DNA of 43,345 nt. Source: Escherichia phage AV102. Below the pieces are notes generated by a model. The model worked only from the letters and a program-made list of their open reading frames with translations. It had not been told where the DNA came from and did no database searches. Positions within the stretch are counted from its first letter, which is position 1, and every line of letters begins with the position of its first letter. This document shows positions 240-43,345 of the stretch, one piece after another. A program made the translations under genes and the position numbers. The stretch lies in the sequence record OR352933.1; one strand, given 5' to 3'.

Positions 240-935
240 AATGCTTCCATTCTAGGGATAGCTCTAGGGATAGCCCAATACTAGCCAATACTAGCCAATA
301 CCATCTAACACTACACAAAGCAGAACGTAGTGCCCGTACGAAGTGAAAGGGCACGTAGTGATGCGGTGACTGTGTTGGTAATGCTTACTCCCTACGGTCG
401 TAATATAGGGCATTACTAGGGGATACTAGTGAGTAGTAGTAAGTAGTATGTATCTAGTGCCCTAAAACCCTCCTACTCCTGTAACATCATTTCAAATTAG
501 CTTTCGAATGAAAGTAAGGGTAAGGGATAGCTCTAGGGATAGCAAGGGATAACGCTAGGTGGCGGATAGTGGTGAGTAGTGGATGTGCGCCCTAGTGGGG
601 AGCGCGCAGCGTAGCATATAATCGGCACAATGTAAAGCACTAGAGATAACCCTAGAGATAGCTCTAGAGATAGCATATAGACGCACTAGCGGCGCACTGG
701 GCGGCCCACTACTGGCCCACTAGAGGCCCGCAAAATAAGCAAGGCAGAGCGCACCCCTACGCCCCACAGAGAGCACCCAGAGCGCACGCAGGGATAAACC
801 TAGTGCCTCCCAGAGCTTCCCAGAGCCTCTACAAGGAGCACATAGGGATAGGCATAGGATAGCTCCAGTGATAGCCATTAGACCGCGCAGGGAGCTTCTG
901 CGGCCCTCATGGAGCGCACTAGGGATAGCCATCTA
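240..935. repeat. Repeat-rich noncoding genome terminus with tandem and dispersed CTAG-containing 10-12-mers
   Basis: TCTAGGGATAGC x2 tandem (251-274); CTAGCCAATA x3 tandem (271-300); CTAGAGATA(A/G)C x3 tandem (640-674); further GGGATAGC copies at 524-559, 843-876 and 919-930. No credible ORF. Confidence 0.8.
471..487 (-). promoter_or_regulatory. Copy 1 of the exact 17-bp element (minus-strand ATGTTACAGGAGTAGGA); candidate phage RNA polymerase promoter near the genome end
   Basis: Plus-strand tcctactcctgtaacat, identical to 11157-11173 and 22743-22759. Lies in the noncoding terminus with no gene downstream, positionally like T7 phiOR. Confidence 0.45.
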
Positions 936-4492: not shown

Positions 4493-6348
4493 TATCGTCT
4501 TCCTCTATGTTGTTTGCCTCTACCCCGACTTTGCAGCCGTGCAGCGACTCCCCGCAACTGTTTCTGGACCATACCCTGCGCCCAGTCCAACGGGTTATTG
4601 ATGAATGCTAGTGCCTGCTTCTCAGACTCTCGTGCAGCTACCACTTTCTCGTCTTCTACTAGATGCCCGTTCAGTACTGCGACCATCATAGCGATGGCGT
4701 CTGCTCGGTCATCCTTAGCCAAGCTACCCCGGTCATACGTAATACCTGCGAGCTGTGCGAACGCAGAGTACAACCAGCGACGATCTCGGGAGTATCGCAT
4801 ACAAGTCCCAATATCATCGTGAATAGCACGCTCATGCACCACTAGGCGGTGTCGTCGAGTTACTGGGCTGATTGTGTCTATAATACGACGTTCTTTCTGC
4901 GTGGTGTTGTTAATGTCACGCACACCAATACCAGCAAGGCGACGCTCCCTCAGGCGGTTCAGAATCAACATAGACACAGTACCGTGCCCCATGTTACTCT
5001 CCACCACCATGTCAGAGATATCCAACTCTACGCACAAATCAATGAGCTTATCGATATTCTCAGTGCTTACGCCTCCTTGGAAACCCCCAACGGAGAACAA
5101 GTGAATGTATGAGTTTGCAGCCCCACCAGCAGCATAGGAGACTTCATCCCCACCACAACCAGCTGGGTCCACCACCAGCACCTTGTGCTGATACGGCAAG
5201 TGCATATCTCCGTAGAATGCCGGGAAGTACATCTGCTGACCCATAATCCCCTCATGCTCGTGCTGGTATAAGTACCGGCGGTCCGCAATATAGGAGAAGG
5301 TCTCTGGGGAGGAATCCTGGCTACCAGAGTAAACCAGCATATCCGAAAGCTTGATACGTGTACGCATCTGGTCGGACAGGGTTGTGTCGAGCATGTACTG
5401 CAGCTGGAAGCCTTCCGGACCAAAGTCCAGCTCCTTCTCAATCAGCGCATCCTCGTCATAGCGCCCGGGGTCCGTGCTCTCCCCTAGCGTCCCGTCGACA
5501 CCGAAGCCGGTGCGTTTATAGCCGCGCTCAATAAGCTCCAGGATATAAGGAGCAAGTGTACTTCCATATCGCTCTTCCATTTCAACAGACGGAATGCGCC
5601 CAGGCCACACGCGGACCTCGAAGCCACGTCCCGGCAGTGTTTTATAGATACTGTCCTTGGTCTGTGGTGTACCCAGGTACAGCGTATCCCCGTGCGTACA
5701 GATGGCCGCGAAGTCTTTAGAAATCGTCAGCAGCTGCTCGCGCTGGGTTTGCGTTAAGCCGTTCTTGGTGGTCTCGATATCGTCCGGAATCAGTAGGTCC
5801 GCACGCTTCCCCTGTAGGGATGCAGTGATACCTACACAGGCTACGCTGGCGGACTTATCCAGAGGTTTCAGGTCACAGTGTACGTCGTAACCTTCAAAGG
5901 AGGTTCGGTCCCCACGTGTAGGGTCAGCCTTCAAGTAGCACAGCAGCGGCCAGGTTTCCAGCATCCGAATGATTAAGTTTGCTACATCGGAAGCCTGCTT
6001 CTCAGCACCCGACACAATCAGGATACGGCAGGATTGGTCCTGGATGAGCCTCCAGACAGCGTAGAGCGCAGCTAGTGTAGACTTAGCCTCACCACGCTGT
6101 GCAGCCACCATGCGCTTCCTAGGGCCCTTCTGCATATACTCCGCAATGTCGGCTTGCATGTCCGTGAGCGTAAAGCCTAGGAAGCGCATGCCTATATATG
6201 CGAACTCCCTGAAATTACTGAGGGTAGCCGCCATCATCATGGCGATATCCTCGCGCTCCTCTTTGGGAATACTGCGCGGGTTCGCATTATAACCAGTAAG
6301 TTTCTGGTTGAGCATGCGCAGTCTTCGCGCAGTCTTCACCGATACCAT
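4492..6348 (-). CDS. Terminase large subunit (DNA maturase B)
   Basis: 618 aa; size and position after the small terminase match T7 gp19-like arrangement. Confidence 0.8.
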   Translation of the reverse strand: MVSVKTARRLRMLNQKLTGYNANPRSIPKEEREDIAMMMAATLSNFREFAYIGMRFLGFTLTDMQADIAEYMQKGPRKRMVAAQRGEAKSTLAALYAVWRLIQDQSCRILIVSGAEKQASDVANLIIRMLETWPLLCYLKADPTRGDRTSFEGYDVHCDLKPLDKSASVACVGITASLQGKRADLLIPDDIETTKNGLTQTQREQLLTISKDFAAICTHGDTLYLGTPQTKDSIYKTLPGRGFEVRVWPGRIPSVEMEERYGSTLAPYILELIERGYKRTGFGVDGTLGESTDPGRYDEDALIEKELDFGPEGFQLQYMLDTTLSDQMRTRIKLSDMLVYSGSQDSSPETFSYIADRRYLYQHEHEGIMGQQMYFPAFYGDMHLPYQHKVLVVDPAGCGGDEVSYAAGGAANSYIHLFSVGGFQGGVSTENIDKLIDLCVELDISDMVVESNMGHGTVSMLILNRLRERRLAGIGVRDINNTTQKERRIIDTISPVTRRHRLVVHERAIHDDIGTCMRYSRDRRWLYSAFAQLAGITYDRGSLAKDDRADAIAMMVAVLNGHLVEDEKVVAARESEKQALAFINNPLDWAQGMVQKQLRGVAARLQSRGRGKQHRGRR

Positions 6349-6656
6349 TAGACAATTCCTTCTAGTAAGTCCTCAGAGTCTGAACCACTAATCTTGTTTA
6401 AAATCTCTTTCTTACGCGCCTCTCTGCGCGCCGCTAGTTCGTCATCGAATTCATCACGTAGCTCCTGCATCTCCTCGGAATCTGCATCGGCGGTGATGTC
6501 ATTGTCTTTCAGGAACTTGGCAATAACAGATTTATCGGCAGCCGGTAAAGGGACCGCATCTTCCCCGGCCTGACGCAGCTCCTCAATGAGCGCCTCCGTG
6601 AACATTCGGTGCAGGTCACTGAGTCTGCTACGCGTTCCTGCCTTGGATACAGCCAT
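6348..6656 (-). CDS. Terminase small subunit (DNA maturase A), putative
   Basis: 102 aa acidic protein immediately upstream of and overlapping the large terminase; position equivalent to T7 gp18. Confidence 0.55.
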   Translation of the reverse strand: MAVSKAGTRSRLSDLHRMFTEALIEELRQAGEDAVPLPAADKSVIAKFLKDNDITADADSEEMQELRDEFDDELAARREARKKEILNKISGSDSEDLLEGIV

Positions 6657-8219: not shown

Positions 8220-11200
8220 TTAATCGTCTCCGAAGTTATTGATGATAGCTCTCGTAGGTGCGAATTCCTGGACCAATGGGACCTGCTTAGTGAAGGTCTG
8301 GATATCCATATTTCCAGTAGCCAGGTCCTGTACCGCCCCCAGTAGACCCGTAACGTAACCCATAGACGCCAGCGAGTGACGTGGAGAGTCCCCAGTGAAG
8401 ATATCCTGCAGAAGCGAGATACCGCCGATGGCGCTCATACCCATAACCGACTCAGCGATAAGCTTCTGAGTGTCGGCCTCTTTGCCGTCCATACCGTGCT
8501 TCGCTATAGTAGCGAGTAGCATCAGCGGGAACTGGTACGCCATGATGTGTGCAACCCCAATCCACCCAGCATCGTTCAGTTCTCGGCGCAGAATCTTGTT
8601 GGTGGCAGCCAGGGCGAAGCTCTGGTAGCCAACGATTACTTTACCAATAGGGTTAAACTGTGCGAAGTGTGAGGTCTCACCGGTACGTACTTGCTGCACC
8701 AGATAATCCATCATTCTGGTACCTACCACCTCAATTTGCATTTGCAGGTCCGGCTGGAACATAGCACCAGGATTAGCTTTGTTAGCAGCAATAGCCCGGT
8801 CAGCGATTTCACGAGTAAGACCGAAACGTTCCAGACGCTTAAACGCCTCAGCGTCGCCCTTGAACATCTGCTGGAGTTCATCCGCTACAATACCTGAGTT
8901 AAGGTTAACCTGCAGTCGATGTACCATACTCATACCGTTGACGTGACGCGCAGCCTGTCCAACGTTCTGGGTGACGTTAAACCAGGAAGCCTGACGGGTC
9001 AGGTCCAAGTTATCGTCTGCGTAGGTATTCAGCCAGCGGAAGCGCATCTCCTTCTGGATACTGCCACGTAGGATTGTATCCAGGCGACTAGCCATGTCCG
9101 GATTACGAATAGCTACGGCACCCTCTTTAAACCAGGGCTGCTCACGCATACTGCGGAGTACTCGGGACATACCAAACTCTTTCAGCGCTAGAGCGGTGTC
9201 AGTAAGCTGGTACAACCCAGAGTTCTTAAGCATGGTAGCGTTGGCCATGTTACCGGCTGCACGGAGCAGGTCCGGCATTTGACCGGCGTCGGCTGGTGCT
9301 CCACCCAGGATAAAGTCAATGGTGTCATTAACGGTCTTCTCCCACTTACCCGAATCGGCTAGGGCGTGTTTGGACTCGTTAATCATCGTCTCCAGCATCT
9401 TGAGGTCAGATACCCCAGCATAAGCCATACCTACACGACCTGACATACGATTGGTGTAACCGTGCATTACCTTGGCTACATCAGTATCCATCAGGTCCTG
9501 CATACGCATAGCCTGACCATCCACGATGTACTCTTTGTCCATGTTGAAGCGGGTACGTTGACGGAGGTTCTTAGCAGGCGAGGTAGCGCCAGATTCTCGG
9601 ACATTACCTGCCAAGAAACTCTGGATTGCACTCTCGTCTACGCCAGCATTACGCATGGCCATAACCACTTCATCATTACCCATACCATTGATGAGTTGCT
9701 TCCACATAGGACCAGAGGCCGAGGAGCGTCCGTTGTAGATACCATCAACCATCTCCTTAGCAACACGTTGAACGACCTCAGGTTCCATAGACGGATACAC
9801 GTCACGTAATGCCTGGCGGAATAAATCTCGGTAGTTATCCAGGGAGCGACCGTTCGCAATACCTTGGCGCATCTTATCGTAGCTGTACTGGCGTGGGAAG
9901 TAGTAGTCTGATTTAATCAGAGTACCTTCATCCACTAAACCGGCAGCGGTCATGTGGTCATGCCACTTACTAGCCCAACCAGAGTTGCGATACGCCTCAA
10001 CAAGCGGAACTAAGTCAGAGTCCGGCAGAGGTACAGGGCGTCCATTAACCTCAGCGCTGTATGCAGAGTCCAAATAACGGCCCAAGCGGTCTTCTAAGTC
10101 AGCGCGAGCTGCTCGGAAGTTGCTACGATGGAAGAAGCGGTCCGTGAAACCTACACCTTTGGCCTTGAGGGCACCAAGTATAGCATCCTCAACTACACTG
10201 GCACTAGCGTCCATCTCCAACGTAAGATTACGTTTGAAGTCCACCACAGACGGTTTACGACCGCCTACAGCAGTAGCGTCAGATACTAATAAGCGTGCCA
10301 GGTCCTCACTACCCTCTGCGATGTTATCATACAGGGAGAACATAGTGGCGAACTTGCGCTTAGCAGTTTCCATCATAGCTTGGGCCTTCAAGGCCTCATG
10401 CTTAACCGATGTATCCGCCAAGTCCTGGAAGGCCTCACTCCGGAAGCTCTGAGCTTGGTCTGCGTAGTCCTTTGCGGTCCACTTGACAGCGTCCTCGTAC
10501 GCGTCCAGAACATCCTCCAGGGCCGAACCCTTGGTACGGACCCCAAGCGCATTCATGATGTACTCACCAATCTGGCGGAGCATGCTTTTACCGGTAGGGG
10601 ATTTAGTTCTAGAGAGGTATTCTACCCACTCAGGGCTGTCGCCTAGTCCGGCCAGCATCTCGTGCACGTCACTGGCATAATACTTAAATTTATCACTAAG
10701 AGTTGAATCTGCTGCTATTGCAGCGCGCACCTCTTCCAGCTTACTAGCAATTTCAGGATTCTGCTTGATGGCTCTGGTGGTGGCAGCGTGAATCAACTCG
10801 TGCACTGCTACTCGGCTAGTGTCCGCATCCATAGCACGCAGAGCATCCCCGGCAGTAGTCCAGGTACTTCCGTTCGCTTTCTTAGGGGCACGTAAAGATA
10901 TAAAACCCCTATCAGTTGTTGATGCTGGTGAAAATCCATAGTGACTACGGTTAGAAGAACCGGCCACCAGTTTAAAGTCGATATCCTGTACTGCGTCACC
11001 CAGGGTGTCCAGGATAGCCTTCTGACCTTTAGATAAGTGTTCAGAGGTCTTGAGGAAACGGACTACGTCCTGCGCTTTCATGTTAACAGCAGCAGTGTTA
11101 TTCCGGCGAACTTGGATAGGTTCATCCAGTACCTTAGTGAGTATTGTGTCCCCTTCTCCTACTCCTGTAACATTAGCATCCCTTGCTGTACGAGTTGTGG

Positions 11201-22742: not shown

Positions 22743-22759
22743 TCCTACTCCTGTAACAT
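22743..22759 (-). promoter_or_regulatory. Copy 3 of the exact 17-bp element, between the SLOG-like gene and the next ORF
   Basis: Plus-strand tcctactcctgtaacat; minus-strand AGGAG within it also serves as the RBS of the downstream ORF. Confidence 0.45.
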
Positions 22760-22765
22760 TAAATT

Positions 22766-29233: not shown

Positions 29234-30103
29234 TTAGGCTTGCGGTGCAGCAGGCGCTGCGGGGGCTGCAGGAGCCACTGGCGCTGCCGGTGCTACAGGG
29301 GCACTTGGTGCTGCTGGTGCTACTGGAGCACTCGGTGCCGCTGGTGCAGTGGGCGCAGCCGGGGCTGCGGGGGCTGCAGGAGCAGCCGGGGCCTGCATAG
29401 ACTGAGGACTCGGAACCGAACCAGCATTCAGCATAATATCCAACGCACTGCCTGGGAAGTCTACGGCCTTGTACATGTCCTCCTGAATCCAGTTTTTACT
29501 CTTACCATCATCCTTGGTACCTTCGATATACAAGCTATCCCAGGTTTCTTTGGTAGGGTTGTTCCACAAGAACAGCTTAATCTCGGAAGCATCCAGCTCA
29601 GGCATTTTAATCGGCTCACCGGTATTCGGGTCGAACTTCGGAATCGGACGGATTGCCGCGAGGTCTACAATGTTGGACTTCTTACCCGCTGCGCTGGTGT
29701 GCTCATCCACCTGGAATACAAATGCTTGTCCCAGTCGCTGTGCAGCATGCTTAATACTGCCATCGTAGTTGAGCTTGTCGAAGAACTTCTTGAAGCCCGC
29801 ACGCTCAAAGTTGCTAATAGTCATCGGATACGGACGGATACGCTTCACCTCACCGTTCGGGCCGTACACCACAATCCCGATGCGAACGTTCGCCGCGGCA
29901 GGCTTACCGGTAGGCTTACCACCTTTAGTCGGCAGGCGCTTACCAATTTCCACGTACTCAGTAAAGTAACCGTAGTACTCACCCTTCGGCAGAAGCACAT
30001 CCTCATACGCACCACCCTGGGCGGTTTCGGTCATATCAACTTCTTGGGTTTCAATCGCAGCAGCAACCAGGGAGTTCAGAGTGTCCAGTGCATTCATAGT
30101 CAT
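29234..30103 (-). CDS. Hypothetical protein with C-terminal Pro-Ala repeat tail; possibly a DNA-binding or SSB-like protein by position
   Basis: 289 aa; last ~50 residues are PAAPAAPAAP-type repeats ending in PQA and stop; position between replication genes. Confidence 0.55.
   Translation of the reverse strand: MTMNALDTLNSLVAAAIETQEVDMTETAQGGAYEDVLLPKGEYYGYFTEYVEIGKRLPTKGGKPTGKPAAANVRIGIVVYGPNGEVKRIRPYPMTISNFERAGFKKFFDKLNYDGSIKHAAQRLGQAFVFQVDEHTSAAGKKSNIVDLAAIRPIPKFDPNTGEPIKMPELDASEIKLFLWNNPTKETWDSLYIEGTKDDGKSKNWIQEDMYKAVDFPGSALDIMLNAGSVPSPQSMQAPAAPAAPAAPAAPTAPAAPSAPVAPAAPSAPVAPAAPVAPAAPAAPAAPQA
29237..29395 (-). repeat. Tandem GCN/CCN-rich nucleotide repeats encoding the Pro-Ala tail
   Basis: Repeated gctgcaggagc / ggtgctgctggtgc units on the plus strand within the CDS 3' end. 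Confidence 0.7.
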
Positions 30104-41846: not shown

Positions 41847-41870
41847 TTGAAACCTCGTTGTTAACGGTAT

Positions 41871-41901
41871 TCACATAGCGCCCCGCAGGACGCTATAGGC
41901 T
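41871..41901 (-). promoter_or_regulatory. Conserved early-region hairpin element, copy 1
   Basis: Minus transcript AGCCUAUAGCGUCC-UGCG-GGGCGCUAUGUGA: 10-bp stem including G-U pairs, so strand-specific. Confidence 0.55.
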
Positions 41902-42619: not shown

Positions 42620-42655
42620 GATGCACCTCTTTGATTGGTTGTTTAGGTAATTACT

Positions 42656-42686
42656 TCACATAGCACCCCATAGGATGCTATAGGCT
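42656..42686 (-). promoter_or_regulatory. Conserved early-region hairpin element, copy 2
   Basis: Minus transcript AGCCUAUAGCAUCC-UAUG-GGGUGCUAUGUGA: same 10-bp stem as copy 1 with one G-C pair replaced by A-U. Confidence 0.55.
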
Positions 42687-42690
42687 GTAA

Positions 42691-42906
42691 TTAGCGTCCG
42701 AACTGCCCAGCAGTGTACCAGCCTTGCGGGGCCTTGCTGCTTCCCTTTGTTTTGGTCTTACCGCGTACATTCGTACTAAACGTCGCAGATTGCTTCATCC
42801 GCATATACCCAGCACGATTAAGTGCATCCCGGCGTTTTCTCAATTCCGAACCGGATAGCTTCTCAAGTCCAGCGAATTGCTGTGCTAACTTCTCACGATA
42901 TTTCAT
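42691..42906 (-). CDS. First early gene, small basic protein
   Basis: Start MKYREKLAQQF at 42906 (GAGGTG RBS); the track ORF starts 15 nt upstream. Confidence 0.5.
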   Translation of the reverse strand: MKYREKLAQQFAGLEKLSGSELRKRRDALNRAGYMRMKQSATFSTNVRGKTKTKGSSKAPQGWYTAGQFGR

Positions 42907-43179
42907 TGTACACCTCATCAAAGTTAATGGTTAGCGCCCTAGCAGTGTTTAGCAGGACGCTAACTTTTAACCTTGTTGCCCACTGCACTACCGTGGAACC
43001 TGTGGTTCAGGTTTCGGCGCTATTCTTTTAAGGGGCAGCGCCTCAGCGCCCCCGCCGTTTGTCGTCTCGGCCCTTGACGTTACATCTTTGCTGCACTGAT
43101 TATCTAGGATTGGTCGTCATCGTACCAGTCAAGGTACTGGGCCTCACCGCAAATCAGCTTACTACGTTGTTCGCTATCT

Positions 43180-43329: not shown

Positions 43330-43345
43330 GGGATTCAATCTAGCT
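43330..43345. repeat. Terminal direct repeat copy matching positions 1-16
   Basis: Same 16-mer as the window start; boundary is approximate by 1 nt. Confidence 0.6.

Follow-up and report, generated by a model that had tools for sequence, protein, structure and literature searches.

The genome ends of phage T7 and its relatives carry a recognizable set of noncoding elements. The parts of the T7 left end, among them the short-repeat array SRL, the promoter phiOL and the promoters A1-A3, reportedly take their names from Dunn and Studier in 1983. In the T7 record, a 160-nt terminal repeat starts with TCTCAC and contains CCCCCATAGGGGGTACCTA at 26-44, with phiOL at 405 and A1-A3 at 498-750. The same record holds 16 units of the CCTAAAG type in one orientation, mostly 13 nt apart, of which three are found in the terminal repeat and the rest at 175-355. 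In phages lambda and SPP1, the cosB sites R1-R3 and the pacL/pacR boxes, respectively, are small-terminase sites with repeated elements. Here we describe a repeat-rich stretch of Escherichia phage AV102 (sequence record OR352933.1), positions 240-935 of a 43,345-nt window that represents the complete phage genome and in which all long open reading frames (ORFs) are found on the minus strand. This stretch, read on the minus strand, is very probably the noncoding control region at the left end of a Drulisvirus genome, laid out in the manner of the T7 left end. It is conserved, belongs to a kind of genome end known since T7, and is ordinary for its family; what is without description in the searchable literature is its motif family, built around a GATAGC core. 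The best overall explanation, to which we give a little less than an even chance, is that of a left-end region with a direct terminal repeat (DTR), promoters, and clusters of GATAGC that act as sites for the packaging machinery.

The motif, (C)TAG(G/A)GATA(G/A)C, is found in 15 copies on the plus strand between 257 and 924, in one orientation only. In a listing of every plus-strand GATA, these copies have their GATA at 257, 269, 422, 526, 538, 548, 565, 645, 657, 669, 793, 847, 858, 870, and 924; an earlier sequence-only reading had counted at least four further copies of the GGGATAGC type beyond its tandem arrays. On the coding strand the motif is GYTATCYCTAG, with GATAGC as its core, and the copies are grouped in clusters of two to three that are spaced by 10-12 nt. 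A stricter pattern gives 12 copies on one strand and none on the other, with the same 10-12-nt spacing within clusters. The motif is also confined to this end of the genome: the exact form GCTATCYCTAG occurs six times in the window, every one within 252-929, and AGGGATAG occurs six times in 1-1157 and not once on either strand of the remaining 42 kb. The stretch 240-935 contains 71 redundant 8-mers, compared with 7.6 +/- 3.6 (maximum 20) in 1000 dinucleotide shuffles and a mean of 7.1 (maximum 29) in 408 coding windows of equal size, and is thus around 10 times more repetitive than the shuffles or any coding window. Tandem Repeats Finder (TRF) places 12 of its 40 rows for the whole window in 110-944. 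All of the arrays that the sequence-only reading had named are found by TRF where it put them, together with others that it lacked, at 684-729 (an 11-mer in 4.1 copies), 522-551, 808-826, and 841-862. One degenerate copy in reverse orientation (TTATCTCTAAG on the plus strand) is seen at 194-204, in a conserved block upstream of promoter P2, and an equivalent site is present in 14 of 16 relatives.

The genomic setting of the stretch is clear from comparison. By megablast, AV102 falls within Drulisvirus (Autographiviridae, Slopekvirinae; KP34-like), the nearest record being Escherichia phage Minorna at 96.7% identity, and the region 1-1200 is common to 256 phage records, nearly all of them from Drulisvirus. 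On the circular map, 240-935 lies inside a noncoding stretch of about 1.58 kb that extends from the stop of the tailspike gene (1158-2678) to the first early ORF, which starts at 42906. The first 16 nt of the window are identical to 43330-43345 (GGGATTCAATCTAGCT), so that the contig is a circularized assembly, the ends of which do not represent the physical ends of the genome. The sequence-only reading had treated the stretch as a genome end: a T7-like left end does lie close by, at 1012 by homology, whereas the start of the window is an assembly breakpoint. This breakpoint falls directly past the -10 element of promoter P3, where the alignment to relatives ceases. The absence of a credible ORF, which had also been noted, is borne out. 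Seven ORFs of at least 30 aa are present in 240-935, and in 15 related left ends not one of them is preserved intact; the stretch is therefore noncoding, and coding potential is ruled out. An Rfam scan of 1-1300 in E-value mode gave no match.

The position of the physical end is given by relatives. In phage fHe-Kpn01, blunt ends and a 222-bp DTR have been established by PhageTerm, restriction digests, ligation, and Sanger sequencing (PMC7291057). The first base of fHe-Kpn01 (CCTCACCCTGAACG...) aligns to window position 1012 on the minus strand. The annotated DTRs of AttikonH1 (247 nt), KP34 (216 nt), and Dlv622 (278 nt) share with that of fHe-Kpn01 (222 nt) a common start, CCTCACCC, and a common inner end, ...GGTGCGCTC followed by TGCCTT (GCGCTC, then TGCCTT), which corresponds to window position 747. 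This shared start and shared boundary place a predicted DTR of 266 nt at 747-1012 on the minus strand, which would put the left physical end of the genome at 1012 (CCTCACCCTCAACG...) and make 747 (...GGGGTGCGCTC) the inner boundary. The region lines up base for base with the mapped fHe-Kpn01 end and with the annotated DTRs, and homology thus points to a DTR with fixed ends; the window has a single copy because the circular assembly collapsed both copies into one. Distances from the left end are given below as x, a coding-strand coordinate equal to 1013 minus the window coordinate, and the features described are on the minus strand unless stated otherwise. By homology to the termini of relatives, 240-935 corresponds to 77-772 nt from the left physical end and comprises the inner 190 nt of the predicted DTR together with about 500 nt of unique left-end DNA.

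Within this framework, the terminus itself is conserved over x 1-45, including the palindrome CCCCCATAGGGGG at 976-988, which lies 25 nt from the left end and is invariant in 16 Drulisvirus left ends. It is followed in the DTR by a homopolymer of nine C on the plus strand (G9 on the coding strand) at 948-956 (x 57-65). The alignment shows runs of about 5 to more than 15 G in relatives, a variation that could be either real slippage or a sequencing artefact. The repeats then begin. A motif copy, ACTAGGGATAGC on the plus strand, is found at 918-929 (x 84), and three tandem GATAGC-type copies with spacings of 12 and 11 nt are found at 841-875 (x 138, 150, and 161); the latter form the best-conserved cluster, with a conservation of 0.9-1.0 across the 16 left ends. 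A degenerate copy, GCAGGGATAAAC, completes the set within the DTR at 788-799 (x 216). Directly outside the inner boundary (x 266) there is a conserved box, TGCCTTGCTTATTTTGCGG, at 728-746. Related boxes are also seen just beyond this boundary elsewhere: the sequence is TGCCTTGCTTATTTTG here, GCTTACCTCTTTTG in phiKDA1, TGCCTTTTG in LIMElight, TGCCTCT in Fri1, and CCTTGCC in phiKMV. The box is similar across subfamilies and may be part of the right-end cut signal.

Further in, an array of units of about 11 nt of the CCTAGTGGGCC type occupies 684-729 (TRF, 11 nt in 4.1 copies; x 285-330) and is hypervariable, with 2 to about 8 units in relatives. It is followed by three tandem 12-nt copies, GCTATCTCTAGA, GCTATCTCTAGG, and GTTATCTCTAGT (GCTATCTCTAG units), at 639-674 (x 340-375), for which TRF calls a 12-mer in 3.3 copies at 636-675. 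Three to four copies (TAAGGGATAGC, TCTAGGGATAGC, AAGGGATAAC, and a degenerate GGCGGATAGT) make up the cluster at 521-570, three of them at x 461-492, and a single variant copy from the GATA listing, CTAGGGGATACT, is embedded in a TAG-rich stretch at 416-427. The last elements are a 10-nt array, TATTGGCTAG in 2.7 copies with a degenerate continuation, at 275-313 (x 700-738), and two tandem exact copies of GCTATCCCTAGA at 251-274 (x 738-762). TRF reports these two as CCAATACTAG in 2.7 copies at 275-301 and TCTAGGGATAGC in two copies at 251-274, each with a 100% match; both the unit and the copy number of the 10-nt array differ among relatives. Each of the 16 Drulisvirus left ends shows the clusters in equivalent positions, though copy number varies. 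The most constrained blocks in these 16 left ends are the terminus, the triple cluster in the DTR, the DTR boundary, the promoter P1, the phage promoter, P2, and P3.

The promoters, which had been missed when the sequence was first read, are of two kinds. The first is a strong promoter for a KP34-type phage RNA polymerase (RNAP), TGATGTTACAGGAGTA, at 474-489 (x 524-539), an exact match and the phiOL analogue of this region. The same 16-mer at KP34 nt 475-490 drives transcription by KP34 RNAP in vitro (Lu et al., PMC6834552). The window contains exactly three copies of it, at the sites expected from KP34. The other two exact copies (TAATGTTACAGGAGTA) lie on the minus strand at 11160-11175 and 22746-22761, in the same places as in KP34, one after the RNAP gene and one inside or before the large gene for an internal virion protein. 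The second kind is of host type. P1, at 608-636, is a predicted sigma-70-like promoter read from the sequence as TTTACA, 17 nt, and TGc-TACGCT with an extended -10; its block is invariant in 16 relatives, and it was missed by a strict consensus promoter scan. Beyond x 762 come P2 and then P3. P2, at 139-168, is likewise predicted from the sequence as sigma-70-like (TTGCTT, 18 nt, TATAGT) and is conserved. P3, at 8-36, is a sigma-70 promoter (TTGACA, 17 nt, TAGATT) that was recovered by the consensus scan and is annotated as a promoter in the KP34 record. P3, read from 36 to 8, is the sole host promoter of consensus grade, and P1 and P2 are conserved sequence predictions.

This layout mirrors that of T7 in several respects. 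In both phages the terminal repeat starts with YCTCAC and, some 25 nt in, has the palindrome CCCCCATAGGGGGT, short repeats in a single orientation and mostly 10-13 nt apart occur in and just behind the terminal repeat, a promoter for the phage polymerase follows the array and is itself followed by host promoters in T7 and by predicted ones in AV102, and the leader is noncoding over at least about 1 kb. The termini align directly: window 1012-968 against T7 1-47 gives a 19-nt match, CCCCCATAGGGGGTRCCTA, at the same offset (E=4e-4). The palindrome is found at the same position in T7 (26-38), phiKDA1, and CB5, and in a shorter form in SP6. When viral contigs were scanned for CCCCCATAGGGGGT, over 120 loci were obtained; most of these were unrelated or due to chance, but further Drulisvirus ends and phiKDA1 were recovered in this way. 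The differences from T7 concern the repeats and the boundary. The unit is CCTAAAG in T7 and GYTATCYCTAG in Drulisvirus, and the continuous 13-copy SRL of T7 contrasts with clusters of two to three spread here over about 700 nt among promoters. T7 and SP6 have the class II sequence ATCTGTT at the repeat boundary, where the conserved box is found in AV102.

Arrays of this general type occur in other phages as well. T7, SP6, Acinetobacter phage Fri1, LIMElight, and phiKDA1 each have 7-16 short repeats of one orientation, most of them separated by 10-13 nt, within the terminal repeat and directly behind it, although the unit differs: CTTAGTG in SP6 (12 copies), CTTATCA in Fri1 (9 copies), GGCTATC in LIMElight, and GGGATAGC in phiKDA1. 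SP6 and Fri1 thus resemble AV102 in having lineage-specific repeats in a single orientation, but not in the sequence of the unit. The arrangement is therefore a family trait, of which the Drulisvirus form is seen here.

Two phages outside Drulisvirus share more than the arrangement. In Enterobacter phage phiKDA1 (Koutsourovirus), the 42-nt terminus is 88% identical to that of the window, and GGGATAGC is found at 91, 144, 156, and 167 nt from the end, compared with 84, 138, 150, and 161 nt here. The spacing of the motif is therefore the same and the distances from the end are nearly identical, yet the motif is on the opposite strand. On its motif strand, GGATAGC occurs in phiKDA1 at both genome ends only. 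A simple block inversion between Drulisvirus and phiKDA1 is ruled out, as the order of the single site relative to the triple cluster is unchanged; it is also opposed by a forward-strand match, GAGGCTCTGGGA, on the other side of the cluster. In Pantoea phage LIMElight (Limelightvirus), GGCTATC is found six to seven times across the DTR boundary at intervals of 10-11 nt. Both phages thus have the GATAGC core, the 10-12-nt spacing, and clusters that straddle the inner boundary of the DTR, but they are without the CTAG flank and without the extra promoter-proximal clusters further in. No published description of the clusters in phiKDA1 or LIMElight was found.

The comparison also defines the core of the motif. 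The sequence-only reading had drawn attention to the repeated occurrence of the tetranucleotide CTAG, and CTAG is indeed dense here, with 17 in the 696 nt of 240-935 (24.4 per kb) against 2.75 per kb in the coding part, a ninefold difference; 2.6 would be expected from mononucleotide composition and 9.6 +/- 2.6 are found in dinucleotide shuffles of the region. The density is 18-27 per kb in all 16 Drulisvirus left ends. Yet 8 of the 17 are merely the 5' flank of the GATA motif, and the left ends of phiKDA1 and LIMElight retain their GATAGC repeats with only 1-2 CTAG per 900 nt. Because phiKDA1 keeps the motif at the same positions with a single CTAG in this length, GATAGC is the conserved core, as judged by cross-genus comparison, and CTAG is a flank specific to the Drulisvirus lineage.

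How the clusters might act can now be considered. The motif is restricted to the genome end and keeps its position from one genus to the next; its orientation is uniform within each genome, while its strand can be flipped between genera. Since the flip in phiKDA1 leaves the positions unchanged, a protein that binds duplex DNA is favored over a strand-specific signal. Clusters are found 84-270 nt from the predicted left cut and on both sides of the inner boundary where the maturation cuts must fall. The likeliest mechanism, though at somewhat less than an even chance, is that the GATAGC clusters are binding sites for terminase or other packaging proteins; the link of the arrays to concatemer processing and packaging, first proposed by the sequence-only reading, draws on position and analogy. 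Under such a scheme the clusters would be double-stranded binding sites for the maturation and packaging machinery, and the most plausible binder would be an oligomeric small terminase. The bound protein would mark the junction in concatemers and thereby determine that cutting occurs at the two DTR boundaries, 1012 and 747, and the promoters in the same stretch would act after infection, with this end entering the cell first. In lambda cosB and SPP1 pac, too, several short repeated sites are found no more than a few hundred bp from where terminase cuts, although the sites in AV102 reach much further from the cut and packaging here would involve a DTR rather than cos or headful processing.

The gene for the candidate trans-acting binder, the small terminase subunit, is at 6348-6656 on the minus strand (PHROG 891, E=7e-30). 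A 25-aa segment of its product, IPLPAADKSVIAKFLKDNDITADAD, is 100% identical in AV102, phiKDA1, and LIMElight, where overall identity is 63-73%, and it is altered in CB5 and Fri1, whose repeats are different. The small terminase has no sequence relative in the PDB, and a single-sequence AlphaFold model (predicted local distance difference test, or pLDDT, of 61.5) is too poor for a DNA-binding fold to be read from it. On the strength of the fixed distances from the end, the use of either strand, and the invariant small-terminase segment, GATAGC clusters might even be a recognition element of terminases throughout the KP34 supergroup (Drulisvirus, Koutsourovirus, and Limelightvirus), though this broader proposal is rather unlikely to hold. 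If true, it would provide the first defined function for the terminal short repeats that have been unexplained since the T7 sequence of 1983, and a portable packaging signal for the engineering of Klebsiella and Escherichia coli phages.

A number of observations weigh against a role in packaging. The co-variation of the small terminase with the repeats is confounded by phylogeny: the identity of the large terminase falls in the same order (79, 70, 60, and 47%), and because overall relatedness follows that order the support from the small terminase is weak. The clusters extend to about 760 nt from the end and adjoin promoters, one of them abutting the -35 element of P1, and a transcriptional role would fit these promoter-adjoining clusters equally well. 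T7 has a right-side array, SRR, and AV102 has none: in the unique right-end spacer that separates the DTR from the tailspike stop (1013-1157), TRF and a motif search detected no array, and a single degenerate copy at most (1116-1130). We know of no proof of a role for the short-repeat arrays of T7 either. Literature searches found no binding or genetic data and no function for these repeats in any phage, and those on T7 SRL/SRR, pacB, and Drulisvirus transcription starts yielded no description of them. The physical ends of the AV102 genome, moreover, are placed from those of its relatives, and the announcement of Minorna reports headful packaging from PhageTerm (PMC6554615). This statement is contrary to fixed ends but carries little weight; the same paper labels this podovirus as a T1-like myophage, and the Minorna record opens 14 nt inside the homologous end.

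An alternative is that the GATAGC clusters are operator-like sites through which an early phage factor or a host factor tunes P1, the phiOL-like promoter, and P2; early transcription might, for instance, be shut off or boosted in this way. Such a role is unlikely, but it accounts for the placing of several clusters. The three-copy array at 639-674 stops 2 nt short of the P1 -35 element, the phage promoter is preceded at a distance of about 30 nt by the array at 521-553 (in the cluster at 521-570), and the P2 block is preceded by the array at 251-274. A similar promoter in phiKDA1, TTGCAC-17-TGcTAAGCT, has the last copies about 25 nt upstream of it, and operators that are bound cooperatively typically show a spacing of 10-12 nt. 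Against this, the best-conserved cluster, at 841-875, is inside the DTR with no promoter after it, and the arrays of LIMElight end more than 100 nt before its first annotated promoter. The early proteins are also poorly conserved between the genera that share the motif, and no DNA-binding domain is seen among seven early ORFs, for which Pfam and PHROG gave no informative match.

The repeats might instead have no sequence-specific function, the region being a spacer tolerant of slippage and the arrays neutral by-products. This is improbable for the region as a whole, though neutral slippage does fit the hypervariable 11-mer and 10-mer arrays at 684-729 and 275-313, which vary freely in copy number and even in unit among close relatives, and tandem duplication automatically yields copies of the same orientation. 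It does not fit the GATAGC core, which persists in three genera whose surrounding sequences cannot be aligned, keeps its distances from the genome end even where its orientation has been flipped, is among the most conserved columns of the region in the DTR cluster, and is absent from the remaining 42 kb.

A further suggestion is that the repeats are iteron-like sites of a left-end replication origin beside the phage promoter and an AT-rich patch. A secondary origin has been proposed near phiOL in T7, the phage promoter at 474-489 is present, the GC content drops to 37-41% at 401-550 and to 32% at 151-250, and the direct repeats are about one helical turn apart. Even so, this reading is decidedly improbable. 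Pfam and PHROG searches recognized no initiator-type protein among the seven early ORFs, and many of the copies are in the GC-rich DTR. To our knowledge, T7-type origins need only a phage promoter and AT-rich DNA, and not iterons.

Still more doubtful is the idea that the copies are pause or termination sites for phage RNAP as it crosses the concatemer junction, in analogy to class II signals. T7 and SP6 have (C/G)CTATCTGTT exactly at the inner boundary of the terminal repeat, GCTATCT/CCTAG shares CTATC with it on the non-template strand in the direction of transcription, and there is no strong terminator between the last gene and the DTR. But class II signals are reported to be inactive after any base change in ATCTGTT, and phiKDA1 has the motif at matching positions on the other strand. 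HATCTGTT does not occur in 1-1157, its three genome-wide matches equal the chance expectation, and a T7-type class II pause signal is therefore ruled out by the absence of ATCTGTT from the region. Finally, a restriction-related footprint or a CTAG-specific binding signal, both raised by the sequence-only reading, is exceedingly improbable and already largely refuted by the cross-genus comparison described above. CTAG is near expectation in the coding genome (114 observed against 129 expected under a Markov model), which indicates no genome-wide selection. The tetranucleotide that is actually avoided is GATC, of which the coding part has 37 where about 148 would be expected, and 1-1157 has none; the counts of CTAG and of most of the remaining 4-nt palindromes are close to expectation.

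Drulisviruses are leading candidates for the therapy of Klebsiella and E. coli infections, and their rebooting, genome engineering, and use in transducing particles require the true genome ends and the packaging signal. Recognition of the DTR, repeats, and promoters also corrects the many records of this genus that have been opened at arbitrary points and that contain spurious ORF calls. Several records of relatives carry "hypothetical protein" calls across the noncoding end, and in some Klebsiella phage records a gene for an HNH endonuclease is annotated under the aligned stretch. More generally, the position-conserved GATAGC of three genera, together with the co-conserved terminase segment, offers a handle on the question of the T7 short repeats.

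Two other repeated features were observed in the window. Three related hairpins are found on the minus strand between early genes, at 41852-41900, 42643-42695, and 42922-42968, with a TAGCG/ACC...GCTA stem and folding z-scores of -1.9, -3.0, and -5.2. Hairpins of the KP34 early region, once predicted to be phage promoters, are inactive with the KP34 polymerase (Lu et al., PMC6834552), which rules out such a role. By analogy with the T7 early region, the hairpins may be RNase III sites or terminators. The second feature is a periodic repeat of 9/27 nt at 29244-29401, within the minus-strand ORF 29234-30103. The product of this ORF has 289 aa, and the repeat encodes its low-complexity C-terminal tail, (P-A-A)n, of about 55 residues.

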